A stretch of DNA of 64,000 nucleotides from Azolla caroliniana. Its lineage: Eukaryota > Plantae > Polypodiophyta. The stretch covers positions 9,114,001 through 9,178,000 of the forward strand of contig JBHGNT010000020.1 in NCBI GenBank assembly GCA_043228905.1, read 5' to 3'. Position 1 is the first letter of the stretch. The number at the start of each line of letters is the position of its first letter. A program made the translations under genes and the position numbers. Below are positions 4,719-63,591 of this stretch, piece by piece. The notes under the pieces are model-generated. The model was not told the origin of the DNA, made no database searches, and worked only from the letters and a program-made list of their open reading frames with translations.

Positions 4719-6144
4719 AAAACTCCCTATTGCATCTAGGGGTATAAATTGAATGACAATGTCAATATCAAATATTTCATCACCACCATGGTAGAATTAC
4801 TAAACCATCAAGTTAATAACAAACTTGGTATCAAGTGAAAACAAGTTATCACCATACATGTGGAAGCAAAAACGTGATCAGCACCGGTGGGTGTATGCAA
4901 CACATCTCCTTGAGATTACATCATAATCAAACCACCCTCAATATCACTACTTCTTGTCCTACCCTCCAACCACACCCACTCCATAACACAAAGAAGAAGG
5001 TAACAAGGTTTACATGTGTATGTGAGTAGTGCGTGAGATGAATTGAGAAAAGAATCTCGTGACTCTTCCATAGACGATAGAAATAGGGGTTTGGTGTCAA
5101 TCGAGATCAAGGTTGTGTATAGATTCCTTCACTTTCTAACTGTCTTTGTCTTGGTGTTCCGATCTCTCCGTCATGGGTAAACATCCCATTATTGTAATAA
5201 ATTGTCTCATGGGCCAAATTTGGTCTTAGAAGACACTAATATATCTTTCTTTTTTTCTCACTCTTTGTTTTCTAATCTCCCATTCCCAATATATGTTTTC
5301 AATATAAAGCTTATGCACGTATTGTTCCATCTCTTCATTGGTGAATTCACTAACTATACCTTCTTTTTTGCCCATGAGTTGTGTCCATGCTAACTTTGGT
5401 TGGAGTTTAAGCATTAGCATTTTTAAATTTTCTTACATTTATTAATATTGTCTGTTCTTTCTCCTCACAATTCTTCAATGTTGATACAACATTAAGGACT
5501 TCTTCATTTTTTATTTTTGCGCGCCTAAATCCTACACATCAAGGAGTCCAAATTATTGAAAGAATTTTGTTGGATGGTAGAGCTCTCCAGTGGAACATAC
5601 AGATTTCAGTCCTTAATCGCTAGCTGAGTGGAGTTCACCATCAAAGAATTGCTGATATTAGATCCTAGTCCATAGCAGGATGTACTCCAACGAGTAAAAG
5701 GTGAATTCCACATGGAACATGGGGAATCTATGGTGATGACATCACACGAGCATCTGCTACTCTTCAACAGAAGAGACTAGTAGCTACACCTTTCAAAGCT
5801 TATGACTTAGTTTCATGCTCTCCATGAAGGTAAATGGTGTGACTAGCAAAGAGTTAACATCCATGAACTTCACATGTTGTTTCCCGTGAGCAACAATAGA
5901 GGAGCACCACACATGTAAAGTCCTAGCTAAGAGGACATCAAAGTCGAAACATATGGATGATACTCTAAGCATTCAAATCCAATGACCACATCTTGAACTA
6001 AACAAATCTAAAATTTGCTAATTCTCACATCCCACTTCCTTTTTCTCCACCTCTGTTTGATGATGTCTCACTTGATGCCTAAGACCAGTAACCTTTCTGT
6101 CCCACATACATATGTACATGCGCAAATTTATCTTTGCATATTTA

Positions 6145-6470
6145 TATGCATGAAGTATTTGAAAACATAAGGTGATTCAGATTACTGACAATGAGCTTTG
6201 ATATTCTCTTGTGGTTCAATGTTAAGTGATCTTCCATTCTGGAAGTTATAACCAGCATCCATAGTTTTTCCTTCATATGTATTGATGAATGCGCAAGTGT
6301 TGACCAACTCCACATGATATCCATCTAAAATAACCTTTGCTCATTGTAAATACCGGTCTTCTGACTCATCTGCGGCAGAATATTTTAACTTTGCATAAAT
6401 ATCTAAGTTTCGAAGTTGTCCTGTATCATTTGAAAATGGTCTAAAGTTTCTACTCGGATCGGTTCACACA
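6145..6470 (-). pseudogene. Frameshifted E+/DYW-domain remnant behind PPR gene 1
   Basis: Alternate minus frame reads V*TDPSRNFRPFSNDTGQLRNLDIYAKLK...GYHVELVNTCAFINTYEGKT, then ISKL in another frame; collinear with PLS E+/DYW consensus. Confidence 0.65.
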
Positions 6471-9339
6471 TTCCTTGCAGCATAAAAGTAGCATATTTCA
6501 ACCTCATTGCATCAACTTTTCTTGCGTCCTCATCCATACCAGCAGCAACAAAAATATTAGCCATAAGAACAAACGCAGTAGCACAACTATGGTCCATTTT
6601 AACTGTCTCATCAAAAGCCAATCTCCCAAGCTTCACATTCCCCCATTTTTTACAAGCACCTAGTAGTGCAAGCCAAACATCAGGATAATCGGATGACGGC
6701 ATTGCCCTAATCACTGACATTGCCTTTTCAAAGAGCCCTGCACCTCCATAAACACCCACCATACAAATATGGTGCTCTAAATTTGGAAAAATGCCATATT
6801 TAGTGCTCATATTCCCATAAAGCATTTGAGCCTCATTCAACAATCCTGAGCAACGACAGGAATTTAAAACAGATCGTAGGGTGATTGCATCTGGTGAAAT
6901 ACCTTCATTTTGCATATGTTTCAAACAGTTAAGTGCTTCATGGCCTTGCCCTTGTTGAGCATACCCTGCAATGAGCACCGACCAAGAGATTACATCTCGA
7001 ATAGGAAGTTCTTCCAATACTTGGCGTGCTTTTGCAAGCATGCCACATTTAACATACATATCCACCAAAGCATTGCCTAGTACAATATCATCCTTGAGTA
7101 GGCCCCTACTCTCAACCTCTTCATGTATTTGTTTGCCTTTATCTACAGCTCCTATGTTGCCACATACATTTAAGATGCAAATGAATGTCACAAAACTTGG
7201 AGAGTGACCCTCACTTTGCATTCGATCAAAACAATCCAAAGCATCATGACATTTCCCATATTGGGCATAACCCACAATGAGAGTATTCCAGGAGACATCA
7301 TCTCGAACAGGAAGTTCTTCAAGCACCCGTTGTGCTTTTCTAAGCATACCACATTTGGCATACATATCTAATATTGCATTTCCAAGCACAATATCCTTCT
7401 CCAGCAACTGCATCCTCACAATGTGGCCATGAATTTGCTTTCCCTTGTCAATAGTTCTGGTGCTGCTACATGCCTTTAAAATACAAATGAAGGTCACTGA
7501 ATCTGGAGACAGTCCCTCGCTTTGCATTCCTTCCAAGCAATGAAGTGCTTCATGAATTTTCCCTCGTTGGACATACCCAGAAATCAATGCAGACCAACAT
7601 GCTACATTACGAACAGAAAGCTCATCAAGAACCTTTTGAGCTTTTGTAAGTATACCACATTTGGCATACATATCCACCAATGCAGTGCCAAGCATGATAT
7701 CCTTCTCCAACAAGCACCTATCCATGATCTCATCATGAATTTGTTCGCCCTTCACTATAGCTTCCATGCTAGCGCATGCCTTCAAGATGCAAATGAAGGT
7801 GACCTTATCAGGAGAGAGGCCGTCACTCTTCATCCTTTCAAAACTATTCATTGATTCATTGCATAACCCATGTTCTGCATACCCTGAAATCAGCGCATTC
7901 CAAGACACAACATCTCGAACTGGGAGGTCTTTCAGCACCTCTTCTGCTGTTTTAAATGCACCAAATTTGGCATACATATCAATCAAAGCATTTCCGAGCG
8001 CAATATCTTTCAACAAACCCCTTATTATAATAGCATCATGAAATTCTTTGCCCTTTTCTATAGCTCCTAGATCACTGCATGCCCTTAAGATGCATATAAA
8101 AGTGATTGCATCCGGAGAGAAGCCCTCGCTTTGCATCAGTTCCAAACAGTTCAGCACTTTATAAGCTTGCCCATATTGGGCATATCCTGACATTAATGTG
8201 TTCCAAGTCACGACATCCCGGCTAGGAATCACTTCAAGAACTTTCTCAGCTTTTGCAAGCTCTCCACACTTTGCATACATATCTAACATAGCATTGCAAA
8301 GCACAAAATCCTTTTGGAACAAGCCCCTATTGATAATTTCATTGCAAATCTGATCTCCCTTATCTATAGCTCTTAGTCTGCCGCAAACAATCAATATGCA
8401 TGTGAAAGTCACTAAATCTGGAGTCTGACCTTTACTTTGCATCCATCCAAAACAATCTAGTGCTTCATGATATTGTTCTTGTTGGACATGGCCTGATATT
8501 AGTGCATTCCATGAGGATACATTTCTACCTGGGATTCTTTCCAGGACTTGTCGTGCTTGTGCAAGAAGCCCACATTTGGCATACATATCTACCAAAGCAC
8601 TGCTCAGTACAGTATCCTTCTCTAACAAGCCCCTATTCACAATATGTTCATGAACTTGTTTGCCCTTCCCTATAGCTCCAATGGTACCACAAGCCTTAAG
8701 AATAGAAATGAAGGTGACTTCATCCGGAGAGATACCCTCTATTTGCATCTGTTCTAAACAGTCTAGTGCTCTATAACCTTGTCCTTGTTGGGCAAATCCT
8801 GCAATTAAAGAATTCCAAGAGACTACATTTCGTATTGGAAGCTCTTTGAGCACTTGTATTGCTTTTGTAAGTGCCCCACATTTGGCATACATATCCACCA
8901 GAGCACTTCCAACAACAACATCTTTCTCAAGCAAACCCCTCCTAGAAATTTCATCATGCATTTGTTTGCCCTTGCCTATCGCCCCAATTATTCCACATGC
9001 CTTCACAATGCAAGTATAAGTGATCACATCGGGAAACAAGCCTTCATTTTGCATCCTTTCAAAACAGTTTAAAGCGTCGTGACCTTTTCCTTGCTGGGAA
9101 TACCCTGCAATTAGAGCATTCCATGAGAATTGAGTCCTGAAAGGAAGAGTATCAAGCACTTCTTGTGCTTTCGCGAGCATGCCACATTTGACATACATGC
9201 TAATCAGACTGCTTCCTAGATATGAGTTTTTTTGCAGCAAACCCTTACGCAAAATCTCAATATGTAACCGTCTTCCTTCACACAGGTCCTTCTTCTTGGC
9301 ACAAACCTTGAGCAAGGCCACAAAAGTACAACATTCCAT
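6403..9339 (-). CDS. PLS-class pentatricopeptide repeat protein with E1/E2 (978 aa), no intact DYW
   Basis: Intronless ORF; about 26 motifs in L-S-P triplets (TFICILKAC / LGNALVDMYAKCG / VSWNALISGY) ending P2-L2-S2, then E1 'DVWLALLGAC' and E2 'AFVLMANIF'. Confidence 0.93.
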   Translation of the reverse strand: MECCTFVALLKVCAKKKDLCEGRRLHIEILRKGLLQKNSYLGSSLISMYVKCGMLAKAQEVLDTLPFRTQFSWNALIAGYSQQGKGHDALNCFERMQNEGLFPDVITYTCIVKACGIIGAIGKGKQMHDEISRRGLLEKDVVVGSALVDMYAKCGALTKAIQVLKELPIRNVVSWNSLIAGFAQQGQGYRALDCLEQMQIEGISPDEVTFISILKACGTIGAIGKGKQVHEHIVNRGLLEKDTVLSSALVDMYAKCGLLAQARQVLERIPGRNVSSWNALISGHVQQEQYHEALDCFGWMQSKGQTPDLVTFTCILIVCGRLRAIDKGDQICNEIINRGLFQKDFVLCNAMLDMYAKCGELAKAEKVLEVIPSRDVVTWNTLMSGYAQYGQAYKVLNCLELMQSEGFSPDAITFICILRACSDLGAIEKGKEFHDAIIIRGLLKDIALGNALIDMYAKFGAFKTAEEVLKDLPVRDVVSWNALISGYAEHGLCNESMNSFERMKSDGLSPDKVTFICILKACASMEAIVKGEQIHDEIMDRCLLEKDIMLGTALVDMYAKCGILTKAQKVLDELSVRNVACWSALISGYVQRGKIHEALHCLEGMQSEGLSPDSVTFICILKACSSTRTIDKGKQIHGHIVRMQLLEKDIVLGNAILDMYAKCGMLRKAQRVLEELPVRDDVSWNTLIVGYAQYGKCHDALDCFDRMQSEGHSPSFVTFICILNVCGNIGAVDKGKQIHEEVESRGLLKDDIVLGNALVDMYVKCGMLAKARQVLEELPIRDVISWSVLIAGYAQQGQGHEALNCLKHMQNEGISPDAITLRSVLNSCRCSGLLNEAQMLYGNMSTKYGIFPNLEHHICMVGVYGGAGLFEKAMSVIRAMPSSDYPDVWLALLGACKKWGNVKLGRLAFDETVKMDHSCATAFVLMANIFVAAGMDEDARKVDAMRLKYATFMLQGMCEPIRVETLDHFQMIQDNFET

Positions 9340-9646
9340 GACTTTTTTACTTCAAACTGTAATGCCATTGGGCGGCCTAGTTAATTTTCTTAGTGAAACA
9401 TAAGAGTATATATACAAATTTTTCTTTTTTTCTTCTTCTTCTTTTTTTGAATTTCCATGGCATGATTGAAATCATTTGCAGGTTTGTTAATTCTTCTTAG
9501 ATTCTCTCTGTATTTGTCTCTTGGCTAATTATGGTCTCATATTGTCAGAACTACAGTCTTATACAAACCTTGACATAAAATTTCCTTTCTCTCCTCCTCT
9601 ATCATGGAGTGATTTCTATCACATACTCAACATTGTTTTGGCTTTC

Positions 9647-12600: not shown

Positions 12601-13684
12601 TGTCGAAATACGAAACCGGCAACGTTGAGTCGGATCGGAGCGAATCCGACTCCGGTAAGGATGAAGGCGGATCTTCGGGAACGAAGTCCGAACCGGCTAA
12701 GAAGGGCCCCAAACCAGGTGATGACAAGTTACGTCGATCTTCCCGCCAGAAGAACCCCGTTACGCGGTACGGGTACAATGGGTTCATGGCACATCACTAT
12801 GCGTACATGACCAAAATGGCGAAAGTGCGTGATCCGGAGAGCTACGCAAGAGCGGCGAAGGACGCAAATTGGCGTGCCGCTATGGAAGAAGAAATGCGGG
12901 CACTCAATGCCAACGACACATGGGAACTCATTGACCCTCCTCGACCCTATAAACCGATCGGTTGCAAATGGGTGTACAAAGTAAAGTACAATGACGACGG
13001 TTCGGTTAACTAGTACAAAGCCCAGTTAGTGGCGAAGGGATACGCAGAGACTCACGGAATCGACTACGACGAGACCTTCACTCCGGTAGCGAAGATGACG
13101 ACGGTTCATGTGGTACTGGCGGTTGTTGCGGCAAGGGGGTGGCATCTTCACCAGATGGACGTGAAGAATGTGTTTCTTCAAGGTGACCTTGAAGAACGGA
13201 TCTATATGATCTAACCTCCCGGTTTTCAGTCGGCGGTGTGCCAGCTTAAGAAGTTGCTTTACAGTCTGAAACAAGCCCCCCAAGCTTGGAATGTGAAGAT
13301 CACGCACCGGTTGCATAAGATGGGGTTTGTGACCTCTAAATCCAACTCATCGTTGTTCATCCGGCAAGGTCTGGATGGTCTGGTTTGCATCTTACTTTAT
13401 GTAGATGATTTAGTCATCACCGGACCCGACTCAATGAAATTGGCCGAGTGAAGTCTCAGCTATCGGATGCATTTGAGATGAAGGACCTGGGGGACCTTCA
13501 TTATTGCTTGGGATCGAGGTGATCCGAACCCCCGATGGCATATTGCTCTCACAACGCCATTATGTGTTGAATATGTTGTACAAGTTCGGCATGACGGAAT
13601 GCCGACCGATCTCCACACCCCTGGACCGGAACCAGAAGCTCTGCCCCGACTCCGAATCGGCTTGCGATGAGAAACGGTTCCGAC

Positions 13685-14037
13685 TGTCAAGATTCGAACT
13701 CTTGACACGACCATGTTATAATCTACTATTATGAGTTAACCAAGATATCTAGTACTAGTTATGTATGTAATTGGTCCTTATTATTTTGCTAGCATCATGT
13801 GCATAGTTGCTCCCTTGTAGTATTTACACTTGGCACATGCATGCATACCTACATGCTCTATTGTAGATTCACATGCGTGCAACAAGTGTGCATGCCATGT
13901 AGTATAAATAGAGGAGTTCACCTTGAAGGAATTCAAGGTGAACAACACCAGTTATGGAGTCTTTCCTTTAGTACTATCTTCTTTCTTGTCCATTTGGTTA
14001 TCTTCTTGGTTGTCTCTTGAGTTTATGATCCGTGACA
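13685..14037 (+). repeat. 5' LTR of the chromovirus
   Basis: Direct repeat of 18622-18974; TATAAATA at 13903-13910. Confidence 0.97.
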
Positions 14038-14039
14038 GT

Positions 14040-14050
14040 TTGTTCACCTT
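14040..14050 (+). promoter_or_regulatory. Self-priming primer-binding site TTGTTCACCTT
   Basis: Exact reverse complement of AAGGTGAACAA at 13935-13945, 32 nt after the TATA start; no TGG-type tRNA PBS after the LTR. Confidence 0.8.
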
Positions 14051-14087
14051 CCCATCCTCATAGCTCTCCCTCTCATAAGCCATAGCT

Positions 14088-15104
14088 ATGTCCGACTCAA
14101 CTAGTGAGTTAGGCCAAATAATGGTAGCCTTACGACAACTACAGCTTGAAAATGAAGCTCTTCGAAATTCTTTACAAGAACTTCAAGTCGGTACCTCCGT
14201 ATCCTCACAACCCCCGAACCCTAGTCTCCCACAACAACCTAGCCTAGAGCCCGATCTTCTACCAACATCTAGCCTAGCTTCGTCACAGTTTCTTGAGCCT
14301 AAGGTTAGCCTCCCAGAAAAATTTGATGGAACGAGGTCGCGTTTCCGAGGGTTCATCAACCAAGTTCGACTTATCATTCGGCTACAACCTCAACGTTATG
14401 GAGATGGTCTTCGACAAGTCGGTCTTGTGGGCACCCTTCTCTCCGGTCCGGCCCAAGCTTGGTTTGCACCATTGGTAGAAACCTCATCACCTTTATTGGA
14501 GGACTTTCCCGCCTTCCTCGCCGAGTTAGAGGCCACATTTGGAGAGACGGACCGACGACGTACAGCTCTTAACAAGATTTATGCACTCGAACAAGGTTCA
14601 CGTGCAGCTTCGGTCTATGCTTCCGAATTTCGACAACTAGCATGCGACGTCAATTGGGATGATCAAGCTTTAGTTGATCACTTTCGGCGCGGTCTTCGAA
14701 GCAATGTCAAGAATCTTCTCTTAAACTTTCCGGAGCCCACCTCGTTATCCCAAGCGATTTCACAAGCAGTCCATTGTGACAATCGTCTTTTCGAATTTCG
14801 CCAAGAAGAGCGCCGAACTTGGGTTCCACCTCATTCACTTCCACGCCACGCCCCAGTCATACAACCCCAAGCATCCTCACACTCCCCTACTTCGGCAGAT
14901 GCTCCTGTCCCCATGGAAATTGATCAAGCCCGATTTCGGCCATTGACTGATGCTGAACGACAATTTCGGCGGGCTAATGGCTTGTGCATGTATTGTGGCG
15001 CCTCCGGTCATGTCGTTCGCCATTGTCCTAGGAGTACTCGCCCACAATTCCATCGAGCTAACGGACCCCAACATCCGGAAAACGACATCGTTCGGTTGCA
15101 GTAG
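14088..15104 (+). CDS. gag: Gag (PEG10/retrotrans_gag-like capsid plus CCHC zinc knuckle), 338 aa
   Basis: 'PEKFDG..FRGFINQ', 'LEQG..ASVYASEF', 'PVPMEID', CMYCGASGHVVRHC. Confidence 0.95.
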   Translation: MSDSTSELGQIMVALRQLQLENEALRNSLQELQVGTSVSSQPPNPSLPQQPSLEPDLLPTSSLASSQFLEPKVSLPEKFDGTRSRFRGFINQVRLIIRLQPQRYGDGLRQVGLVGTLLSGPAQAWFAPLVETSSPLLEDFPAFLAELEATFGETDRRRTALNKIYALEQGSRAASVYASEFRQLACDVNWDDQALVDHFRRGLRSNVKNLLLNFPEPTSLSQAISQAVHCDNRLFEFRQEERRTWVPPHSLPRHAPVIQPQASSHSPTSADAPVPMEIDQARFRPLTDAERQFRRANGLCMYCGASGHVVRHCPRSTRPQFHRANGPQHPENDIVRLQ

Positions 15105-15127
15105 GAGCCATGCAACTGGACATCTCC
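15077..15127 (+). promoter_or_regulatory. Putative -1 ribosomal frameshift signal
   Basis: G GAA AAC (15077-83) in the gag frame, 7-nt spacer, stem 15091-15100/15111-15120; the -1 frame is open and in phase with pol. Confidence 0.75.
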
Positions 15128-18100
15128 CGTCGCCCACATTCTCTTGGTTCCATTGCCGGACCATCAGGCAATTTCACATTGGAGGTATGGCTTTCGTTTA
15201 ACTCTAGTTCCATTCAATCTGTTGCTTTACTTGATTCTGGGGCATCTTCTTGCTTCATCGACGTCGCGTTTGCCCAAGCACATGGCGTACCTGTCGTTGG
15301 CCTCTCAAAACCCATTCCAGTTGAAGCCATCGACGGGTGCGTCCTCTCGTCAGGTGCAATTACTCAAGCTACAATCCCATTAGGGCTTCGGGTGGGCTCA
15401 CACCAAGAGGAGCTCACCTTTTACCTCATCGCATCTCCTCGACATCCGATCGTCTTAGGACTAACGTGGTTGGAGGCGCACAATCCAATAGTAGATTGGT
15501 GCAACCGCTCGATCACATTTAGCAAGCCAAGATGCTCGTGCAAAAGTATGAAGGTAAATTCAGTTTCCTATCCTTCGGAGACGGTCGACTCCGAATTGAC
15601 TACCCCATCATCCGTCCAGGATGGGTTTGTCTGTGGCGCCATTTCTAACACACTCCATGTTATTCCCGAAAAATACCAACACTTCTCCGACGTATTTGAA
15701 AAATGTAATGCTGATCGGTTGCCTGAACACCGGCTCTACGACTGTCCGATTGATCTTCAAGAAGGTGCGTGTCCACCCTTTGGTCCTCTATATGCGTTGT
15801 CTGCACCAGAGTTGAAGGCCCTTCGTGTGTATCTTGATGAGAACCTCGCGAAAGGCTTTATTCAACCTTCTAAGTCACCAGCCGGGGCCCCCATTTTATT
15901 TGTGAAGAAGAAGGACGGCTCTCTACGCTTATGCGTCGACTACCGAGGTCTCAACAAACTCACTGTGCGCAACCGCTATCCGCTACCTCTGATCCCCGAA
16001 CTCCTTGATCGGCTCCGAGTTGCGCGTGTCTTCTCCAAAGTTGATCTGCGTGGCGCATACAATCTAGTACGCATCAAGCCAGGGGATGAATGGAAAACTG
16101 CATTTCGAACACGGTATGGGCATTTCGAATACAAGGTAATGCCTTTTGGTCTTACTAACGCTCCCGCAGTTTTTCAACATATGATGAACGATATTTTCCG
16201 GGAATATCTTGATCTTTTTGTTGTCATTTACCTCGATGATATTCTCATTTTCTCGCCAAACATGGAGGAGCACACTCGCCAAGTCCGATTAGTTCTGGCC
16301 AAACTTCGCGAGCATGGCCTTTATGCCAAAAGCGAGAAATGCGAGTTCGACCGTACCTCGATCGAATTTCTGGGCTACATCATCTCGCCCACTGGCATCA
16401 CCATGGATATGAAGAAGGTCTCTGTCATTCAGACGTGGACGACTCCAAGGCGACTTAAAGATGTGCAATCCTTCCTCGGCTTCGCAAATTTTTACCGTCG
16501 CTTCATCAAGGGGTTTTCCACCCTAGCACAACCTCTTATCGCTCTCACCCATAAGGGCACTCCATTTTTATGGACCTCGGAGGCACAAAATGCGTTCGAC
16601 TCACTCAAACACGCATTCATCACTGCCCCGGTGCTGCTACATGCCGACCCCACAAAACCCTTCCAAGTCGAAACCGATGCCTCTGACTTTGCCATCGGCG
16701 CCATCTTATCCCAAGCAGACAACAACAACCTAATGCACCCAGTGGCTTACTATTCCCGAAAATTTACGGCATCCGAAATCAATTATCCCATTTACGACAA
16801 GGAGCTTGCTGCTATCATTGCTGCCTTTGAAGAATGGCGACCCTACTTGGCCGGCGCACAACATCGTGTCCAGGTAGTGACTGATCATAAAAATTTAGTT
16901 TATTTTTCCACCACTCGTACTTTGAATCGAAGGCAGGCCCGTTGGTCTACATTTCTCGCTGACTACGATTTTGAGATTGTATTTCGACCTGGTGGCCAAC
17001 ATGGGAAGGCTGATGCCCTTTCTCGCCGAGCTGACCTTGCACTCCGCCCTGGGGATGCTGCTTATGCTCAACAATCTAGACGTTTGTTGAAACCCGACCA
17101 ATTGCATATGTTTGCCACTTGTATGTTGCAGGATGATTCTTTACTCCAACAAATCACTGATGCATCCAAGACCGATGCGTTCGCCAACGAGATTCGAGAT
17201 AGTCTGCAAAACCCCTCCAAGGCGACCAAAAGGAAGGATCTTGACACCTTCACCATACAAGAGGGTTTGTTGTTCCGAGATCATCTCTTATACGTCCCAG
17301 AGGGCCCATGTCGCACCCGGGTGTTGCGGGAATGCCACGATGACCCACTTGCAGGTCATTTCGGGGTCGCGAAAACCCTCGAGCTAATCTCTCGGGGGTA
17401 TTGGTGGCCACAACCATGGAAGCTGGTCAAAGAATACATAAAGAGTTGTGAGGTTTGTGCTCGCTCCAAAGCCATTCATCATCGGCCATACGGCTTACTA
17501 CAGCCGCTTCCATGTCCTCGTCGTCCTTGGGCCTCTATCTCTATGGACCTGATAACTGATCTACCCTTGGTCAATAGCTATGACTCGGTGTTGGTCGTTG
17601 TCGATCGGTTTACGAAGATGGCTCACTTCACTCCATGCTCCAAAACCATTTCCGGAGAAGGAATGGTGCATCTCCTACTCAACAATGTAGTACGCTTGCA
17701 TGGACTCCCCGATGATGTCATCTCGGATCGCGGACCCCAGTTTGTCTCTCACTTCTGGCAACGCCTGCTACAAACTTTAGGCATCTCTGTCAAGTTGTCC
17801 TCCGCTTATCACCCCCAAACTGACGGGCAAACGGAGCGTGTCAACCAAATCCTTGAGCAGTATCTTCGGTGCTCGGTTAGTTACCAACAAGATGATTGGG
17901 TCAACTTACTTTCGCTCGCGGAATTCGCCTACAATAATTCTCTCCATGCATCGACTGGCGTCACTCCCTTCTTTGCCAACTATGGTTTACATCCTCGCTT
18001 CAACATTTCCCTTCCTACCACTTCTGTGAACCCTTCGGCGGAGGATCGTGCCCGCATTTTGGAAGAAGTACATCATGATTTATCCTTGGAGCTTAGTCTT

Positions 18101-18658
18101 GCTAATGAACGATACAAGAAGCAGGCTGATCGCCATCGATCTTCCACTCCACACTTTGTCGTTGGAGACATGGTCTGGTTGTTACGTCGACACATCTCTA
18201 CTACTCGTCCATGTGCGAAACTTGATTACAAGAAGTTGGGACCATTCCGTATCATCGAGTGCATCAATCCCGTCGCCTTCCGGCTCGCCCTTCCATCCCA
18301 CTTCCGGATTCACGATGTTTTTCATGTCTCCCTCCTCGAACCCCATTATGCTTCACAACTCCCAGGACGTCAAGCCCCACCACCACCACCTGTGCAATTG
18401 ACGACAGGGGAGGAATACGAGGTCGACCAAATCCTTGACTTGCGTTGGCACCGTCGACACTTGCAATACCTCGTCCTATGGAGGGGTTACCCCATGTCTG
18501 AGGCCACATGGGAACCATCGGCAAATTTACAAAATGCCCCAGAGGTCGTCCAAGATTTTCATCACCGATATCCCCACAAACCAGCGGCCGATTTGGGAAG
18601 GCGGCGTAAGAGGGGGGATAATGTCAAGATTCGAACTCTTGACATGACCATGTTATAA
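15110..18658 (+). CDS. pol: Pol: protease-RT-RNase H-integrase-chromodomain (1182 aa from first ATG; probably expressed by -1 frameshift)
   Basis: LLDSGA; YLDD; TDASD; HHCC 'HDDPLAGH..CEVC'; SDRGPQF; GPF; chromodomain 'EEYEVDQILD..YLVLWRGY..TWEP'. ORF reads through the PPT and stops inside the 3' LTR. Confidence 0.96.
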   Translation: MQLDISRRPHSLGSIAGPSGNFTLEVWLSFNSSSIQSVALLDSGASSCFIDVAFAQAHGVPVVGLSKPIPVEAIDGCVLSSGAITQATIPLGLRVGSHQEELTFYLIASPRHPIVLGLTWLEAHNPIVDWCNRSITFSKPRCSCKSMKVNSVSYPSETVDSELTTPSSVQDGFVCGAISNTLHVIPEKYQHFSDVFEKCNADRLPEHRLYDCPIDLQEGACPPFGPLYALSAPELKALRVYLDENLAKGFIQPSKSPAGAPILFVKKKDGSLRLCVDYRGLNKLTVRNRYPLPLIPELLDRLRVARVFSKVDLRGAYNLVRIKPGDEWKTAFRTRYGHFEYKVMPFGLTNAPAVFQHMMNDIFREYLDLFVVIYLDDILIFSPNMEEHTRQVRLVLAKLREHGLYAKSEKCEFDRTSIEFLGYIISPTGITMDMKKVSVIQTWTTPRRLKDVQSFLGFANFYRRFIKGFSTLAQPLIALTHKGTPFLWTSEAQNAFDSLKHAFITAPVLLHADPTKPFQVETDASDFAIGAILSQADNNNLMHPVAYYSRKFTASEINYPIYDKELAAIIAAFEEWRPYLAGAQHRVQVVTDHKNLVYFSTTRTLNRRQARWSTFLADYDFEIVFRPGGQHGKADALSRRADLALRPGDAAYAQQSRRLLKPDQLHMFATCMLQDDSLLQQITDASKTDAFANEIRDSLQNPSKATKRKDLDTFTIQEGLLFRDHLLYVPEGPCRTRVLRECHDDPLAGHFGVAKTLELISRGYWWPQPWKLVKEYIKSCEVCARSKAIHHRPYGLLQPLPCPRRPWASISMDLITDLPLVNSYDSVLVVVDRFTKMAHFTPCSKTISGEGMVHLLLNNVVRLHGLPDDVISDRGPQFVSHFWQRLLQTLGISVKLSSAYHPQTDGQTERVNQILEQYLRCSVSYQQDDWVNLLSLAEFAYNNSLHASTGVTPFFANYGLHPRFNISLPTTSVNPSAEDRARILEEVHHDLSLELSLANERYKKQADRHRSSTPHFVVGDMVWLLRRHISTTRPCAKLDYKKLGPFRIIECINPVAFRLALPSHFRIHDVFHVSLLEPHYASQLPGRQAPPPPPVQLTTGEEYEVDQILDLRWHRRHLQYLVLWRGYPMSEATWEPSANLQNAPEVVQDFHHRYPHKPAADLGRRRKRGDNVKIRTLDMTML

Positions 18659-18974
18659 TCTACTATTATGAGTTAACCAAGATATCTAGTACTAGTTATG
18701 TATGTAATTGGTCCTTATTATTTTGCTAGCATCATGTGCATAGTTGCTCCCTTGTAGTATTTACACTTGGCACATGCATGCATACCTGCATGCTCTATTG
18801 TAGATTCACATGCGTGCAACAAGTGTGCATGCCATGTAGTATAAATAGAGGAGTTCACCTTGAAGGAATTCAAGGTGAACAACACCAGTTATGGAGTCTT
18901 TCCTTTAGTACTATCTTCTTTCTTGTCCATTTGGTTATCTTCTTGGTTGTCTCTTGAGTTTATGATCCGTGACA
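18622..18974 (+). repeat. 3' LTR of the chromovirus
   Basis: Follows the PPT and is followed by TSD CCGAC. Confidence 0.97.
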
Positions 18975-21413
18975 CCGACAAATAGTCGGAAGGCTGATAT
19001 ACTTGAAAATCACCCGACCTGACATCAGTTATCCGATCGGAGTGATCAGCCAGTTCATGCAGAAGTTGACCGTTGAGCACCTTCAGTGCGCACACCGGAT
19101 ACTCCGGTATGTTAGCGGCACGAAGGACCGGGGACTGTTATACCGACACGGTATAACTAAAGAGCTAGTCGGATACACAGATGTCGACTGGGCTGGTGAT
19201 GAATCGGATCGCCGATCCACCTCCGGGTACATGTTTTCCCTTGGTAGCGTAGCTGTCGCGTGGACCTGCAAAAAGCAGCCAACAGTGGCTCTGTCAAGCA
19301 CTAAGGCTGAATACCAAGGCACTACCAATGCCACATGTGAAGCTATATGGCTTCGGCGACAACTGCGAGATCTTCGGATCGAGGTGTCGACCCCGATCCT
19401 AATCTACTACGACAACATGAGCAGCATTCAGCTCGCCAAGCACCTTGTGTTCCATACTCGGACGAAGCACATAGAAGTCCACTATCACTTTGTGCGTGAG
19501 CAGGTTTTGAGCAGTGAAGTCAAACTTCGGTATGTTCAGACGGATCGGTAGGTTTCCGACATCTTCACCAAACCGCTCGGATCAGACAAGTTGTAGCACT
19601 TCACCGAAATGCTTGGTGTACAACATCTCGACGTGCCGCACTTGAGGGGGAGAACAGGAACGAGCAAAGGTACTGGTGATGACACCGGACAAGGAGCCGA
19701 AGAGGAAGAAAGAACCAAGGGGGGAGATGAGCAAAAAAAGGTAGCCGAGTCGAACGAAGGAGTCGGCACATCCGAACAAGTCAGAGCAAGCGGCAACGGC
19801 GGCAGAGTCAAGAAGGACAGAGGCGACCAGAAGAAGGCCAAGACCCGGACATGGTTTGATGTGGTGAAGGGCCTAAAAACGAAAGACAAGTTGGAAACTA
19901 CCAACTCGGACAAGAGCTGGAACGAATCGAAAGAAGCCGATTCGGTTCAAGATTCGGAGAAGCCGGATCAACTAAAGGCCAAACAGCAAAGGAGCTGAAA
20001 TGGGCCTGTTGAGCAGACAAGCCGACCGAGGAGGTCGAGGTGCGCAGAAACAGAAGGGTCACATCAAACAGAACCGGACCGAACAAGGAGCGCGAGCAAG
20101 ACAGAGCAACGCCAGAAGGAGCCGGGTAGAAGAACCGGCTGCCACAGACACTGACATATAAACGAACTAAGAAAACTCTCAAAATACATATAAACGAGAT
20201 TAAACTTGGTTAATCACTCTTAATTAGTTGATATGGAAGAGTACGCAAAGAAATGAGGAAGTATTAGAATAAGCACAATCAATGGTTTTAAGAGATACCT
20301 TACAAGTTACAATCAACCCAAAGGCTTAAGATAGGAGCGGGGCACTTTGGGGCTTACTTATCTTAGTAATTAGATTAAAGAAGTGATCATAACTCGGTTA
20401 CAACTTACAAGATAAAATTAGAAGAGGCTTAGCTCTAGCACAAGTTCTCAAAAATGACAAGAAGCAACTAAAAAGACTTTAACATTGTCTTTTATAGTGC
20501 TTGCAATGCGCTTAGGCCTTTTCACACTAATTCGTCTCTCTCTCTACTCTTTTACATGTCTTTATTCCTTTGTCTTTTTCCTAGCTCCTTCATCTCTGAC
20601 CAAGGTTCCAATTATTTATTGGAGTGTGGGGCCTTTGATGAGGTCAAAGCTCATATCCTACTTGGGATGATCGTGCTTGTGAAAGTGCGAGTGTGCACAC
20701 ACTCTCATGCAAAGTAGGATGCGAAGGTGGTGGGAAAAAAAGGATGGTGGCCTAGAGAGTTGGATCCAAGACATCCAGGTGCCCATATGTGAACTCTATC
20801 GTAGTCTAGTCTGGAACACTCAATCCTCAGTGGGTCATGGGGGGCTTTGCGATGTTTCGAGAGGCGCTGCCATGACTGATGCCCCCTCAACATAAATTAA
20901 CAATGTTGGTCCGGACTGATCTGATGTCGGGGAGGTCCTCGTGGTGAGCTCTTGTTGCCGTTGTAGAGAGGTCATGAGCTCTTCGAATATCCTATATCTC
21001 CGGCTTCCTTGGCTTGGTAGGTCTCCTCTAAGGTAGTCTGTACCTGAACCTGGGCTTCTTGTTGCAGAACCACATGTGGTTGTTCCTGGAGATCACTTGC
21101 TCAAGCAAGTGCTTGTCGACCACTCAGCCATCCAAAGGACAATAAGTTTTTGGACATTTTGCCATTGTTCTTGCAAGTCTGCATGGTCTTTTGCACATCA
21201 GAGAGAAGTATGTCAGCTTTCTCTGAAGACTTCACTAGCATCGGCAAATGATGAATAAGGCTGAACACAAAACTGTCTTAAGCTTTCTCAAGCTTCAAAA
21301 GCATAGGAAATCAACTCTTATACCAACACCAAATCTTATTGCTCATCATGTTCAATTCACACGAGGACACCCAGATGCACTCATTGAATTTTGTCATAGC
21401 TTCGCTCCACCAC

Positions 21414-21742: not shown

Positions 21743-24700
21743 TTAGCCCCAACACACATTCGGATTATATCCTCCATGTAGCATTTTGATGGCAGCAGCT
21801 TTCACCAGTTCATACATTTCTTTATTTTGAGAGTCAGTTGTAGTCAGAGAAAACGAATCATCAAGATGCGCATCTGAATATGCCCAAGTCCATATTTGTT
21901 TCTTGTTCACATCACTATATTCCAGTCTCAAAGCGTCAAGTTTTTCTGCATCCTCTTGCATGTCAACAGCTGCAAAAATATTAGCCATAAAAACATAAGC
22001 TGCAGCACAAGTATAATCTAGTTTCACTATCTGATCAAAAACCAATTTCCCAAGCTTTTCATTTTCCCATTTTGTACAAGCACTCAATAATGCTAGCCAA
22101 ACTGAAGGATAATCATGAGACGGCATCGCTTTAATCACAGACAGTGCCTTGTTGAAATGGCCTGCACATCCAAGAACTGATACCATGCATGTGTGGTGTT
22201 CTAAGTTTGGAGCAATGCTATATTTTTCAGTCATATTCCTGAAAAGAAATTGTGCCTCTTCTAATAGTCCTGAGTGGCCACATGAACTAAGCACGCCAAG
22301 GAATGTGACCTCATCAGGAGAGATACCTTGAATTTTCATTTGCTCAAAGCAGTTTAAAGCTTCATGACCTTGCCCTTCCTGAGCATATCCTGCGATTAAT
22401 GTATTCCAAGAGACTACATTTCGATTAGGAAGTTCTTCAAGAACTTGGTGTGCCTTTGCAAATGCACCACATTTGGCATACATATCCACCAAAGCATTTC
22501 CAAGTGATATGTCCTCCTCTAATAAGTCCCTGGTCACATAATTGTAATGAATTTGTTGGCCCTTGTCTATAGCTCCTGTGTTACCACATGCCTTCAATAG
22601 TGAAACGAAGGTTAACGCATCCGGGTAAAAACCCTCTTTTTGCAGTTGCTCGAAACACTGGAATGCTTCATGGCATTGTCCATGTTGAGCATGCGATGCG
22701 ATAAGTGTGTTCCAAGAGACAATGTTTCGGATAGGTAGCTCTTCAGCCACCTGTTGTGCTTTTTTAACCGCGCCACATTTACAATACATGTCCACCAAAG
22801 CATTTCCAAGTGCAATGTCCTTCTCTAACAAGCCCTTACACTTGACTTGCTTGTGAATTTCTTTACCCTTCTCCAAATCTCCTACGCTGCCGCAAGCCTT
22901 CAAGAGGCAAATGAAAGTGACTTCATTTGGTGACAAGCCCTCATTTTGCATGTGTTCAAAAGTGTTTAATGCTCCATAGCCTTGCCCTTGTTGGGCATAG
23001 CCTGAAATGACTGAATTCCATGAAACTATATCTCGGGATGGAAGTTCCTCAAGCAGATTGTGTGCTTTAGCAAGTTCACCACATTTGGCATACATATCCA
23101 ACAAAGCAGTGCCAAGCACAGCATCTGTCTCCAGAAAGCCTCTACCCAGAATCTCATCATGAATTTGTTTGCCCTTCTCTATATCTCCTATACTTCCACA
23201 CGCCTTTAAGATACAAATGAAGGTCACCACATCTGGATAGAGATCTTCGTTTTTCATCCATCCGAAATACATGAATGCTTCGTGATACTGCCCCTGTTGA
23301 ACATAACCTGCAATTAGTGAGTTCCAAGAGACTACATCTCGATCAGGAAGGTTTTCAAGAACTTGTTGAGCTTTTCCTATCAAACCAAGTTTGGTGTACA
23401 TATCAACCAAAGCATTACCAAGAGCAATATCCTTCTCCAACAAGCCCCTATTCACAACCTCCTCATGTATTAAGACAGCCTTGTCTATTGTTCTCATGCT
23501 TCCACATGCTTTCATTATGCAAGAAAATGTGAGGGCATCTGCAGAGAGGCCCTCACTTTTCAACATTTCAAAACAATCTAATGCTTTCTGACCTTGTCCC
23601 CATTGAGCATATCCTGCAATTAGTGCGTTCCAAGACACTAAGTTTCGCATAGGAAGTTCTTCAAGCACTTTATATGCCTCAGCAAGCATCCCAGATTTGG
23701 CATACATATCCACTAGAGCATTTCCAAGAACTATATCCATCTTTAATAAGCCTTCATTCAAAATCTTCTCATGAATTTGTATGCCCTCTTTTATAGCCCC
23801 TGTAGCACCACAAGCCTTTAATAAACAAACAAAAGTGCTTGCATTTGGGGAAAGGCCCTCGCTTTCCATGCATTCAAAACTACTCCATGCTTCGTGACAT
23901 CGCCCATGTTGCACACACCCTGCAATAAATGCATTCCAGGATATTACATCTCTAACAGGAAGCTGTTTGAGTACTTGCTTAGCTTTATCCAATGCATTGC
24001 ATTTGGCATACATATCCACCAATGCTGTACCAAGCATGACATCTTTCTCCAACAATTTTGTACTCAAAAGCTCATCATGAATACATATTCCTTTCTTTAA
24101 ATCTCTTGTGTCACTACAAGCCTTCAAAATAGAAATAAATGTGATTGCATCTGGAGATAGGCCTTCATTTTGCATGTGCTCAAAACATTGTAATGCTTCA
24201 TGACCCCGCTGCTGTTCAGCATATCCTGAAATTAGTGAAGACCAAGAGATTGTATCTCGAAAAGGAAGCTTTTCAAGCACATTTTGTGCTTCTGAAAACA
24301 TATCACATTTAGCATACATATCAACCAAAGCATTACCAATCACAATAGTTTCATCGAGCAAACCTTTACTTACAATCTCATCGTGAATTTGTTTGCCATT
24401 CTCTAAACCTCCTTTATTGCCACAAGCCTTCAAGATGCAAATGAAGGTAACAATATTTGGAGAGACACCTTCACTTTGCATATTCTCAAAACAATTTAGA
24501 GCTTCATAAAGTTTCCCTTGTTGAGCATATCCTGAGATAAGTGCTGACCATGTGACCACATTTCGATAAGGGATCTCCTCTAATACTTGCTGTGCTTTTG
24601 CAAGATTACCGCATTTCGCATACATATCCACCAGGGCAGTTCCAATGACGACATCCTTCTCGAGAAATCCCTTACTAACAATCTCATCGTGAATTTCTTT

Positions 24701-25093
24701 ACCCTTCTCTAAAGCTCTTATGCTACCACAAGCTTTCAATACAGAAATGAAAGTAACATGGTTGGGAGGGAGTCCTTCTCTTTGCATTTGTTCAAAACAG
24801 GTCAAAGCTTCTTGAACTTGCCCATTTTGAATATACCCTGATATTAATGCATTCCAATGGACTACATTCTGGTTGTGGATTGATTCAAGTACTCTTCGAG
24901 CTTTTGCAATGGCGCCACATTTGGCATACATGGTGATCAAAGCACCAACTAGGTAAGGGTTCTTTCCTAACGTCCCTCTTCTGAGGATGTCATTGTGTAA
25001 TTTGGTTCCTTTGTTAAGATCCTTCGTCTTTGCACATGACTTGAGCAAGGAGACAAACATCAAATCTTCTTCCATACTTAACCCTCTTGTCAT
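21743..25093 (-). CDS. PLS-class PPR protein, E/E+ type (1116 aa)
   Basis: Intronless ORF, about 29 L-S-P motifs, E1 'SVWLALLSAC', E2 'AYVFMANIF', E+-like tail ending 'KEMYELVK..KMLHGGYNPN'. Confidence 0.93.
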   Translation of the reverse strand: MTRGLSMEEDLMFVSLLKSCAKTKDLNKGTKLHNDILRRGTLGKNPYLVGALITMYAKCGAIAKARRVLESIHNQNVVHWNALISGYIQNGQVQEALTCFEQMQREGLPPNHVTFISVLKACGSIRALEKGKEIHDEIVSKGFLEKDVVIGTALVDMYAKCGNLAKAQQVLEEIPYRNVVTWSALISGYAQQGKLYEALNCFENMQSEGVSPNIVTFICILKACGNKGGLENGKQIHDEIVSKGLLDETIVIGNALVDMYAKCDMFSEAQNVLEKLPFRDTISWSSLISGYAEQQRGHEALQCFEHMQNEGLSPDAITFISILKACSDTRDLKKGICIHDELLSTKLLEKDVMLGTALVDMYAKCNALDKAKQVLKQLPVRDVISWNAFIAGCVQHGRCHEAWSSFECMESEGLSPNASTFVCLLKACGATGAIKEGIQIHEKILNEGLLKMDIVLGNALVDMYAKSGMLAEAYKVLEELPMRNLVSWNALIAGYAQWGQGQKALDCFEMLKSEGLSADALTFSCIMKACGSMRTIDKAVLIHEEVVNRGLLEKDIALGNALVDMYTKLGLIGKAQQVLENLPDRDVVSWNSLIAGYVQQGQYHEAFMYFGWMKNEDLYPDVVTFICILKACGSIGDIEKGKQIHDEILGRGFLETDAVLGTALLDMYAKCGELAKAHNLLEELPSRDIVSWNSVISGYAQQGQGYGALNTFEHMQNEGLSPNEVTFICLLKACGSVGDLEKGKEIHKQVKCKGLLEKDIALGNALVDMYCKCGAVKKAQQVAEELPIRNIVSWNTLIASHAQHGQCHEAFQCFEQLQKEGFYPDALTFVSLLKACGNTGAIDKGQQIHYNYVTRDLLEEDISLGNALVDMYAKCGAFAKAHQVLEELPNRNVVSWNTLIAGYAQEGQGHEALNCFEQMKIQGISPDEVTFLGVLSSCGHSGLLEEAQFLFRNMTEKYSIAPNLEHHTCMVSVLGCAGHFNKALSVIKAMPSHDYPSVWLALLSACTKWENEKLGKLVFDQIVKLDYTCAAAYVFMANIFAAVDMQEDAEKLDALRLEYSDVNKKQIWTWAYSDAHLDDSFSLTTTDSQNKEMYELVKAAAIKMLHGGYNPNVCWG

Positions 25094-26399
25094 GGTTTTC
25101 CTTCAATTCTTCATGTGTTCGTTCACTTCTGGATATGTCTGTCTCTCTCTCTCTCCATCCGTGCGTGTCTCTGTTTCTATGTTGATCGATCATCACGGCA
25201 TAGCTTCTTCTTCGTTTCTTAAAACTTGTTTAAATTTCATGTTCAATTAAGCTAATCTTTCCTTAATCACCTGGCATAGCTACATTAAGCTAAATCTCTC
25301 ACTGCAATATCGGCTCATTAATCTCGGTTAAAGCTAACCTTAATTATGCTCTCAATCTTTAATTTTAGCTTAATCATGCTCTTGTAGTAGCCCTCGTTAT
25401 GCTTAATTGCATGATTATGAGCTTGGGCTCGTGGTTGCTCATTGCTTTTTATGAGTGCATTATGTACTTGTCGGCGAGTGTGGAACTTCCACCCTTACCT
25501 TCACCTCTCGATCGTGTTTTTATCTAATTAAGATTGATGCCCTCAAATGAATATGCTACCTAGCCATCATGAGCTAGATATAGATAGATAGTTCATGATG
25601 TCCACAAATTTTGTGGTTAAATTATGATATTCAATCTGATTAATTAACCCAAACTTTGCAAGATTTAGCAACAATGTTCAAATGTCACTACTACACATGA
25701 TCCCAAAGCTTTGACGTTTATGTAAGGTTAGGCCAGTCTAGTAGTGGACAAAATGCTTTTCCACAATCATGTCTAAAGGTCAAGGGTAGTATAAGAGTAT
25801 CAACAAGGATGGTAACACTTACCCATGTGGCAACCCCTTTACATTCTCGTGTTATTATGTAAACATCATATGGAGACACGTGGCATTCTCTTTCCTCATC
25901 TTAATATCCAACAATTAGTTAAACGTGTACATGGTTAGGATAGTTGAAATACTTTGATAAAAAACCTAGCCAATGTTGCAAATTTAGGATGTGTGAATCT
26001 TGAATGATGAAGAAGCAACGATTATAGTTTTTGGGGTATTGAGAAAGGGCTTTTCCTCTTGATTGGAAAACATCACTCTCAAATCTAATGCCATGATAGA
26101 CCAAAATGTTTAGAGTTTTATATGAATGATGATGTATTGTGGTCAAACACTTGGGTGACTATAATTGATGACAATATCCTCCAAATGAAAGTTCACCACA
26201 TATGCTCACTATGAGATGATACAAAGACGGATGCAATGATATGCTGGGATTAGTAATATTGGATAAACATGGTGATCACACAACATATCGTGGTTAGACT
26301 AATGAATGACCACAACATACAACAAAACGGCATCTAAATGTTAATTCGACCCCATATGTTCACAACAAGGTGATCTACCTAAGTGAGTAGTATTGTATA

Positions 26400-35677: not shown

Positions 35678-38600
35678 ATGAAGATGAGGGCGACGAGGCT
35701 GGTTGCTTCTGGTGCTGCCATCGGAAACATGCTCAACGGATGGGATAGTGCAACTCTTGCAGGCAATCTATTCTCTACTGTATGATGTATCTACTACCAC
35801 ATAAACCCTAATTCTGTCTCGACAATAATCCACCCTAAACCCCCTATTATACATCTACTACCACATAAACCCTTGAATTTTCTGTCTCGACAATAATCTG
35901 TACCCTAAACCGAATCTTTTTATCTATCACATAAACCCTTAATTCTGTCTCTAAAAACCCTAAGAACTTAATACATCTTCCATGATCATGGATCACCGTT
36001 GGGGGCTTTGGCTTCCACACAATATTGTCAATCCTACCCCCATTCACACTACACACGCTTCTTTAGTCACAATCATAATCTAGGTTGTGCACCCTTGAAT
36101 TTTGAGACGTCCATCAGTAAAATTCTTGAGCATCAAATCAAATCTAGTGAAATCATATCAACATGGATCACTACTGAAACACCCCAAACGCGGCATTTCC
36201 TTTTTAGTTCGGGGGACATTATAGCGGAGGATGATATAATCTAATTGCTTTCTAATTTTTGCAGTATTTCACGAAACTATTGTATTGCACATACATACAT
36301 ACATACATTACATACATGTACATTTATACATACATACATTCATTCATACATACATACATACATACATACATACATACATTACATACATGTACATTTATAC
36401 ATACATACATACATTCATTCATTCATACATACATACATACATACATACATGCATGCATGCATGCATGCATGCATTACGTACTGATACACCATAGCATCAA
36501 AGTCATAAAATTGAGAGAAAACCCAAGCTTGACACTCTCCATGGGCTAGTCTCCGTCTCATAGATCGTAACCAGTTTCCCGTGGATCATACAAAGATATC
36601 TATATCTACTTATTTGTAAATGTATGTGTGACAAATAAATGGCATCTTGATGTGTCCACTATGTCTAATCACATATTCTATCTACACACAATTGAAACAT
36701 ATGTAACAATCCAATATGTTATCAACTTCCATGTAAACCCTAAACCCTAAACCAAACCCACCATAACTACTGTACAAGTTTGCGAACAAACCCACAAGTA
36801 ACGTTTGTCAACAACCCTACCAATCAATTTGTGTCTCCAAACATTCGGTGTGGCCTCTCTTATAAAATCAAATCGTTAAATGTTACAAGCCATAACCGAT
36901 GAATGGGGGGGGGGGGGGGAACTTGTCCGAGAGTCTCTTGGAATAGTCCAAAGTATGAGTCTATAAGTTCCATCCAACGAATTTGGTTGTACTCACACAA
37001 CAATCTTTTGCAATGTGCAGGAGCCCTGCTGTACATCATTCCCGAGTTCGGATTGGACACGCGCACCATCCTCGAAGGCTTCATTGTCGCGGCCTCCCTA
37101 GTAGGTGCTGCTATTAGCACCACATTCGCAGGGCCGGGTGCAGATCGGCTTGGCCGACGCCCGATTCTGTGCATATCTGCCACATTGTATTGTCTTGGTG
37201 CTTTGCTCATGCTATGGTCCCCCAATGTATACTTGCTGGTGGTAGCGCGCCTGATCGATGGGGTCGGGGTGGGCCTAGCCGTGACAACAGCCCCGCTCTA
37301 CATTTCGGAAGTCTCTCCGGCCGAAATCCGTGGAGAATTGAACACTCTACCGCAACTCTTAGGCACATCGGGCGTATTTCTAGCGTATTGTATGGTATTT
37401 TTCATCTCGCTTACCACCGATCCCAGCTGGAGGTTGATGTTAGGGGTCATGCTCATCCCGTCGGCCATTTACTTAGCCATAGCTTTCTTTTTTCTACCTG
37501 AGTCTCCGAGGTGGCTCGTCAGTAAGGGCCGTACGAGAGAAGCAAAGCAAGTCTTACAACGACTCCGGAATAAAGAAGATGTGTCAGGTAAGGTTTTATG
37601 TCAAATTTCTTGTTCACCAACATGTAGCAAATATTGTTTCGAAATGTTCCTTTTAAAGATCAAGCTTAATCAGGATCATTTCGTAAAAACTTGTACTGAA
37701 TTGTTACTTATGTTTAGATTTGGTCAATGCATTCGCTGTTACTTATGTTAGATTTCATCATCGTATTCAAGTTATTTGTGTTCATGACACAATTATAACT
37801 AAATTTGATCAATGGGTTCATCATTTGTGTTTGTTATATGCAATAACCTTTCACGTAATTAGAAAGACATACCTTAATTTTCAATAGATTTCATCAATGT
37901 CTTCATCATTTCTGCTTGGTATACAATAACCTTTCATGTGAGAAAGAAAATGCTTAATTTTCACCCGGTAATTTATTCCATGCCACTTTAATTTGCGTGT
38001 AATGTCTCTGTCCTTTTTTTAATTCATGATCATACCTCAGGTTACTTCTCTCTTTTAATGTCATTTCACCAGGAGAAATGGCTCTTCTAGTGGAGGGACT
38101 GGATGTGGGTGAAGATCCAGCCTTGGAAGAGTACATCATCGAGCCGGCCGAGAATTTGGTGAAAGATTTCGATGAAGAGAACCTTGGTGGTGAAGAAGAA
38201 CCTCATCTTAAAATTGTCGCCCAAAATGGGGAGACGCAATTCATCGCGAAGCCCATCTCTAGTCGCACTTCATCTCAGGGCGTAATCCTTTCGAGGCCCA
38301 CAAGTGTTGCTCATCAATTATCGAGCCTCGGAAGTTTTCCCAATTTCATGGACCCAATGGTCGGCTTCATGGGAAGCTTAAAGGGCTCTTTCGTGGACCA
38401 TCGTCGGCTTGAGTTTGAAGATGAAGATAATGAAGAGAATGCGATAAGGAGGCCACATGAAGAAGACTTACACGATCACGATATTGGCAATGCCGAGAGT
38501 GATTACGGAGATGGGGATCTAACTAGTCCTTTACTCTCAAGACGCGCTCGTCATTCCAACGATAACCCGGACATAGTCGACCCTACATTAGGAATTAGGT

Positions 38601-63300: not shown

Positions 63301-63591
63301 GTGCATACCTATTCCTGATGATGCCCTTATTCAAGCCACGGTAAGCTACGATGAGACGAAGTGATCCATCCTTTTTCTTGACAAAGAAAATGGGTGCGCC
63401 GGCTGGAGATTTCAAATTTCGAATAAAACCATTTGCCAAATTGTCATCTATATAGGCTCGAAGGACTTCTAGCTCAGTTGGTGACGAGTTGTAGATCGGG
63501 CCCCATGGTGGCTCTTTTCCCGGTTGTAAATCAATGGGGCAATCATACGGTCGGTGGTGAGGAAGCTTATTGGCTTGTACCTTATTGAAAA

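Follow-up and report, generated by a model that had tools for sequence, protein, structure and literature searches.

Introduction

Retrotransposons of the Tf1/sushi group (Tf1 and Tf2 of S. pombe, and Tj1, Tosmo1-3 and Tcry1) are described, in the available portions of the sources, as carrying a 5' self-primer of about 11 nt, together with a PBS adjoining the LTR, a flanking duplex between R and the end of U5, and an integrase with a chromodomain (PMC7175516, bioRxiv 10.1101/2022.12.06.519325). For Tf2, the start site has been reported to determine whether a transcript is able to self-prime (Persson et al. 2016, PMC5341516). In plants, self-priming has been predicted for 83% of 1500 Tcn1 elements (Neumann 2019, PMC6317226). 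The available text of that paper describes this clade (REXdb; SM-Tcn1 of Selaginella and PpatensLTR of Physcomitrella) from mosses and lycophytes, the only plant groups named for it there and in a second survey, with a 5-bp target-site duplication (TSD), overlapping gag and pol frames and an aromatic-cage chromodomain (PMC6317226). For SM-Tcn1, in contrast, evidence of tRNA- or self-priming was reported to be absent (PMC2864245, as far as its available text goes).

Here we describe a Tcn1-like element from a fern, Azolla caroliniana, found in a 64-kb stretch of genomic DNA that we call the window. In its sequence and predicted fold it shares the Tf1/sushi and plant Tcn1 features listed above, and its length falls slightly below the 5,466-9,444 listed for plant Tcn1 elements in the part of the source available (PMC6317226). 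Fern genome papers may hold a prior annotation of such an element. Self-priming is not new here, since published work has predicted it for plant Tcn1 elements. The new part is a hairpin at the inferred U3/R border which, on comparison of related LTRs, appears to be a conserved and apparently undescribed RNA element atop the known mechanism.

Results

Architecture and setting of the element

The window contains an intact Tcn1-like Ty3/gypsy chromovirus of 5,290 bp (13685-18974, plus strand, as are all features of the element given below), whose target was a decayed copia element. Its insertion is flanked by the 5-bp TSD CCGAC, the left copy (13680..13684) lying inside the copia element and the right at 18975..18979. 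The 5' LTR (13685..14037, TGTCA...TGACA) and the 3' LTR (18622..18974) are 353 bp each and differ at just 2 of 353 positions, and the insertion is therefore young. The gag gene (14088..15104, 338 aa) matches Retrotrans_gag and Ty3_capsid and is overlapped in the -1 frame by pol (15062..18658), which encodes protease, RT, RNase H, integrase and chromodomain; from its type of motif we take GGAAAAC at 15077 to be a candidate slippery site. A polypurine tract (18606..18621) precedes the 3' LTR.

The features of a Ty3/gypsy chromovirus are thus present (TG...CA LTRs, TSD, the order gag-PR-RT-RH-IN and a C-terminal chromodomain), as are two features of the Tcn1 clade, the overlapping gag/pol frames and a TSD of 5 bp. 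The chromodomain matches PF00385, with Y, W and Y at what we take, by assignment from HP1, to be the aromatic-cage positions. Gag matches that of the fungal Cetraspora, and the element resembles SM-Tcn1 by eye.

Other Tcn1-like sequence also lies in the window. The 3' LTR of a second element (60230-60640, minus strand) sits as a nested insertion within a copia element, and pol remnants occupy 60637-61440 and 63062-63700; this LTR has another predicted primer, AAATCGGTTCAA, 32 nt past TATAAA, and an arm of 4 bp only. On either side of the retrotransposon nest stands a long PPR gene that lacks introns (6403-9351 and 21743-25102, minus strand), both having a repeat unit of 306 nt (102 aa), and nearby PPR genes match Streptophyta clusters. 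A neighbouring sugar transporter has its best named matches in Adiantum and Ceratopteris (38-44% identity), those in seed plants reaching at most 38%. These matches indicate a land plant, and probably a fern; the finding of a Tcn1-like element in such a host concerns 13685-18974 and 38030-39082.

The primer, the PBS and the leader fold

A TATA-like box, TATAAATA, occupies 13903..13910, and 32 nt from its start begins the predicted self-primer AAGGTGAACAA (13935..13945), its first base A13935 standing in a C|A context and being the inferred start of transcription. The PBS, TTGTTCACCTT (14040..14050), begins 2 nt past the LTR end (…GTGACA, 14037) and is the exact 11-nt complement of the self-primer. 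None of 2000 dinucleotide-shuffled LTRs contained an 11-nt complement to the 20 nt past the LTR. The original prediction had held that an LTR-complementary site, rather than a tRNA PBS, follows the 5' LTR; this is borne out, as are all of its coordinates, including those of the inverted repeat at 13916-43 and 18853-80. ARAGORN found no tRNA genes over the 64-kb window, and the Rfam 15 covariance models gave no match to 13685-14100 at E up to 1.

In predicted folds of an RNA starting at 13935, the primer pairs with the PBS and the pairing is extended by a second duplex between 13951..13958 and 14029..14036, the latter at the U5 end; this duplex, which the original prediction did not include, completes what is, in the model, a Tf1-like fold. 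When the RNA starts at 13880, a local hairpin is predicted to form instead of the primer-PBS pairing. For RNAs starting at +1, primer-PBS pairing had a probability of 0.85-0.97 in all 25 loci folded, and the second duplex shows changes on both sides among relatives (for example L012, L019 and L032).

The motifs CAACACCAGT and ACAG.TTG (13946-13952 and 14034-14042) hardly vary among all the primer-bearing loci, even between families whose primers are unrelated, or in SM-Tcn1. Possibly they are marks of the RNase H cut site and the integrase end. By eye, SM-Tcn1 has the motifs CAACACCAGT and GACAGTTTG in common with the window element. Inspection by eye of supplement 1 of PMC2864245, in its available portion, also shows a 12-nt LTR segment of SM-Tcn1, aatctgaatcaa (395-406), about 32 nt past a TATA-like run; its exact complement is found at 499-510, 2 nt past the LTR end.

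The PBS follows the primer among relatives

A Gag search and an alignment of 61 Gag proteins provided 78 related loci on metagenome contigs, with Gag identities of 45-95%. They come from the best 80 of 475 confirmed stretches. In 35 of these 78 loci, the site 2 nt past the LTR end has an exact complement of 10-12 nt within the LTR. Six primer sequences are represented (in 19, 5, 4, 4, 2 and 1 loci). The primer lies 31-33 nt from the TATA in 32 of the 35 (38-40 nt in two, unmeasurable in one), and C|A stands at the primer start in every case, one 12-nt match having been trimmed by its leading C. No primer-PBS pair of at least 10 nt was found in the other 43 loci, of which at least six have no sequence upstream of gag and some others are short, rearranged or decayed. 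In L018, L042, L051 and L063 the PBS has one or two mismatches to the primer. No Gag or RT-region relatives were found in viral contigs.

Two mosaic loci, L019 and L036, have a U3 end and a primer like those of L006/L008 together with Gag from other branches. In both, the PBS matches the acquired primer and not the flanking U5 and Gag type, as it should do when the primer is the template from which the PBS is recopied. Self-priming of the window element is hence well supported by comparison with its relatives. In these four loci the U3 end, arm and primer travel between Gag lineages as one block; exchange near the U3-R junction has been reported for fission-yeast elements in the available part of bioRxiv 10.1101/2022.12.06.519325. 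The AAGGCGAACAA primer occurs in three Gag branches, and three independent origins were considered for it and rejected: the loci agree at 81-97% of the final 37 bases of U3 and were therefore counted as one origin, spread by recombination.

Two features set some loci apart. In L069 and L073 the gap of 38-40 nt between TATA and primer holds a hairpin that ends just short of the primer, leaving it uncovered. In L051, L063 and related loci the gap between PBS and gag is about 480 nt, versus 20-100 nt in other families.

A conserved hairpin covers most of the primer

The inverted repeat forms a perfect stem of 12 bp. Its left arm (13916..13927), at the inferred U3 end, is an anti-primer that repeats 9 nt of the PBS; the loop is GGAA (13928..13931); and the right arm (13932..13943) consists of 3 nt of U3 followed by +1 to +9 of the primer. 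The stem thus takes in nine of the 11 bases of the primer, most of which the original prediction had placed in the right arm. A perfect 12-bp stem appeared in one of 2000 dinucleotide-shuffled LTRs.

We aligned 21 LTRs with AAGG-type primers. In this alignment 95.2% of the stem cells are paired, with changes on both sides at 4 of the 12 pairs; none of 500 column shuffles matched the observed pairing, and slid controls were 23-47% paired. The loci are related and mosaic, which inflates covariation counts, and the independent compensatory events accordingly number about five rather than 21: one affects primer +5, the L023 and L042 types are one each, and the inner pairs account for two or three. 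Per-column conservation is 90% in the left arm, 60% in the spacer and 63% in the loop, where the 21 rows show 11 different four-column strings. The outer end of the stem lies at the same column in all 21 rows, and a G-A mismatch is fixed in six of them. Leaving out the bulged L023, the non-Watson-Crick pairs include G-U in three haplotypes and A-C in none, a pattern that would fit, weakly, pairing in the sense strand (RNA). The stem of the L023 type and of L048 extends past +11 into the transfer acceptor. Contigs aligned to the LTR list no variant in 13914-13948, variants near contig ends being unlisted, and their summed depth peaks over the hairpin and primer but is not a copy number; neither observation was given weight.

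Taken by motif and by a TATA 28-36 nt upstream, there are 36 distinct LTR contexts, of which 35 were folded, one having no upstream sequence. The hairpin is present in all 23 contexts of the AAGG primer group to which the window element belongs, and the AAGG loci form one Gag clade with support of 100/99 in a midpoint-rooted tree of 35 selected loci and the window element. Among the 12 contexts with other primers, the primer is significantly covered in three (L048/L077, L076 and, weakly, L078). L048/L077, in a separate Gag clade, has its own perfect stem of 11 bp, which differs in geometry and covers an unrelated primer. Significant covering is absent from the other nine, L053 being borderline and the remaining eight, which include the second Tcn1-like LTR of the window, showing none. 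By eye, no arm is seen in SM-Tcn1 of Selaginella in the available part of the supplement to PMC2864245, though a self-primer is present there.

From these comparisons the hairpin is very probably a real structure conserved in one clade. The same comparisons point to an accessory of that clade and not a requirement of self-priming, because most of the distant self-priming relatives are without it.

Folding energetics of the hairpin

The predicted cost of opening the primer is 9.9-17.6 kcal/mol in the 23 AAGG contexts and 3.4-6.9 kcal/mol after shuffling of the 24 upstream bases (p 0.01-0.02). As a control, a motif scan of viral (phage) contigs gave 120 apparent chance matches, two of which attained 9.9 kcal/mol. 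Inclusion of U3 lowers the predicted binding of the 3' piece to a piece with the LTR end and PBS by 7.5-14.2 kcal/mol in all 17 AAGG loci tested, and binding of the masked 3' piece to the PBS is still predicted to be favourable (-2.7 to -14.1 kcal/mol). L069 and L073 show no such penalty from U3.

Further folds were computed for transcripts starting upstream of +1. With starts up to 15 nt upstream, primer-PBS pairing is kept in all 20 AAGG loci (P at least 0.54). When the start is moved to 37 nt upstream, equilibrium favours the hairpin in 9 of the 20 loci and the PBS in 10, the last locus being split; in the window element the hairpin beats the PBS from a start about 25 nt upstream. Folding during transcription would presumably favour the local hairpin over these equilibrium figures. 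The proposal that read-in transcripts fold the hairpin and hide the primer thus agrees with the nine loci at 37 nt and fails for starts at or below 15 nt.

We also considered the hairpin as a precise check of the start site and rejected this, as primer-PBS pairing survives starts up to 15 nt upstream. Any tie between the hairpin and correct initiation would, on these models, be weak and coarse at most. The original prediction had priming tied to correct initiation by the hairpin, a claim that fares poorly given that the hairpin wins in just 9 of 20 loci and is absent from most of the distant self-primers.

Discussion

A speculative model for masking of the 3' primer copy

Our best reading of the novel hairpin, to which we give slightly less than an even chance, is that it masks the 3' copy of the primer. 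The element probably self-primes, and the 3' copy, locked by the hairpin at the inferred U3/R border, would compete poorly for the PBS. Transcription would begin at A13935, as suggested by the spacing and the C|A context. Bases +1 to +11 would then pair with the PBS, assisted by the second duplex; sequence and covariation point to this pairing, and the fold is a predicted one. By analogy with Tf1, RNase H would cut after +11 and RT would extend the primer. With a start at 13935, both arms would be found only in the 3' LTR part, the copy at 18853..18880 being the sole two-arm copy in such an RNA. In this U3-bearing part the conserved left arm is predicted to take up bases +1 to +9 of the primer's 3' copy in a duplex. 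Cutting or priming at the wrong end, either of which would destroy the acceptor for minus-strand transfer, could thereby be prevented. A point that counts against masking is that the 5' primer, about 100 nt from the PBS and made first, could win unaided.

A broader proposal, which we put forward a little more tentatively, is that some lineages have solved the problem of a primer at both ends more than once, the anti-primer arm at the U3 end acting as an end-discrimination switch. The Tf1 model lacks such a helix, which would be the fourth. It would be inherited together with the primer, the two forming one module, while the PBS is rewritten from the primer each cycle.

Alternative explanations

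Priming by a tRNA or tRNA fragment, with a chance match to the LTR, is scarcely credible, since the PBS does not begin with TGG, follows the LTR sequence through six variants, and in the mosaic L019 and L036 fits the acquired primer. If self-priming is accepted, the hairpin could still have a function other than masking. It is conceivable, though unlikely, that TATAAATA doubles as the poly(A) signal of the 3' LTR and that the hairpin folds out 28 nt, bringing this signal close enough to a cleavage site beyond the conserved R bases, so that covering of the primer is a side effect of the short distance. R/U5 holds AATAAA in none of 22 loci; the variants AATATA, AATACA and AATAAT occur in 5 of 17 AAGG loci versus 5 of 5 others; the arm starts at a fixed place past the TATA; and in AAGG contexts folding cuts the 55-56 steps that separate the TATA end and +31 to 7-30. 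HTLV-1 and BLV likewise have their signal in U3, where it is thought to be bridged by RNA structure (PMC12789967, in its available text). Nevertheless, these path lengths scatter widely, L048 combines a strong hairpin with AATACA, and families without the hairpin have an equal distance from TATA to primer, with no other structure taking its place (z -0.7 to +0.7 in eight contexts). A role in joining the RNA ends seems distinctly less plausible. Here the left arm would be a second PBS at the 3' end of the RNA, and a swap of partners (the 5' primer taking the arm and the 3' copy the PBS) would bring the RNA ends together and aid minus-strand transfer, much as end-pairing aids strand transfer in Ty1 and Ty3. 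The arm does repeat 9 nt of the PBS and tracks changes in the primer, and by arithmetic the number of base pairs is similar after the swap; but compensatory changes also affect pairs further inside the stem, beyond the primer (alignment columns 25-32 and 26-31), and these are explained by a local hairpin only, and closing a 5-kb loop would carry an entropy cost.

The palindrome might also have no function at all. Quasi-palindrome correction is a known mutational process, and fold-back template switching of nascent cDNA could copy the right arm onto the left, so that the repeat maintains itself; this would account for double changes without an unpaired intermediate, and many active-looking families lack the hairpin. 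We regard such an origin as rather improbable, as frequent correction would erase the mismatches, wobbles and bulge that persist, the outer end of the stem, fixed in all 21 rows, shows no outward creep, and the stem is kept across Gag identities down to 58%. The remaining alternative, that the repeat acts as DNA, is in our view a slim one. At the plus-strand strong-stop stage R would normally be in a duplex with the minus strand, which speaks against a hairpin in cDNA, for instance one that stops the 3' end of plus-strand strong-stop DNA, ending in the PBS, from folding back on the R primer copy. A palindromic protein site between TATA and start is hard to reconcile with pairing that is kept while the sequence changes, and the preference for G-U over A-C, three to none, is likewise contrary to a role in DNA. 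In its favour, a DNA hairpin is predicted on both strands (-12.7 and -12.3 kcal/mol), and a single-stranded PBS at the 3' end is described for about half of Tf1 cDNA in the available part of PMC11042837. Masking of the 3' primer copy hence remains the reading that we prefer.

If it is true, a primer present at both ends would be a built-in problem of self-priming retroelements. How such elements avoid the 3' copy is not addressed in the Tf1/Tcn1 literature surveyed, as far as the available portions of those papers go. A short covarying hairpin permits a direct test, and natural variants with and without the arm exist. Furthermore, the comparison gives sequence-level support to plant Tcn1-like self-priming, which has so far rested on prediction, and shows that the PBS follows a primer acquired by recombination.

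Comparison with known systems

As in Tf1/sushi elements, the PBS of the Azolla element adjoins the 5' LTR and is complementary to LTR sequence about 30 nt past the TATA box, whereas the overlapping gag and pol frames of the Azolla element set it apart from Tf1/Tf2. The Tf1/sushi leader forms a 'pretzel' of three duplexes, all downstream of the start, and the available text mentions no arm in U3 (PMC7175516, bioRxiv 10.1101/2022.12.06.519325). Two of the three, the central and the R-U5 duplex, were identified here and co-change in relatives. Pairing between a U3 arm and a self-primer is not described in the available portions of PMC6317226, PMC2864245, PMC3601003, PMC4600332, PMC5341516, PMC7175516, PMC11042837, bioRxiv 10.1101/2022.12.06.519325 and PMC12789967; more widely, our search of the Tf1/Tcn1 literature, which ran outside the original Tf1 publications and those of Butler (2001) and of Goodwin and Poulter (2001), yielded no description of it in the texts available.

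The closest published idea that we found in these sources is the start-site control of Tf2 (PMC5341516). According to the part of that paper available, this control is imposed by the host, nucleosome and chromatin remodelers moving the start downstream of the primer (PMC5341516). In the Azolla element, by contrast, an RNA arm encoded by the element itself would act on RNAs that carry U3. A further parallel is offered by the poly(A) hairpin of HIV-1 and the Rex response element of HTLV-1, where structure gives identical copies of R different fates (PMC12789967, available text). These retroviral LTR hairpins act on polyadenylation signals, whereas the hairpin described here would act on the primer.
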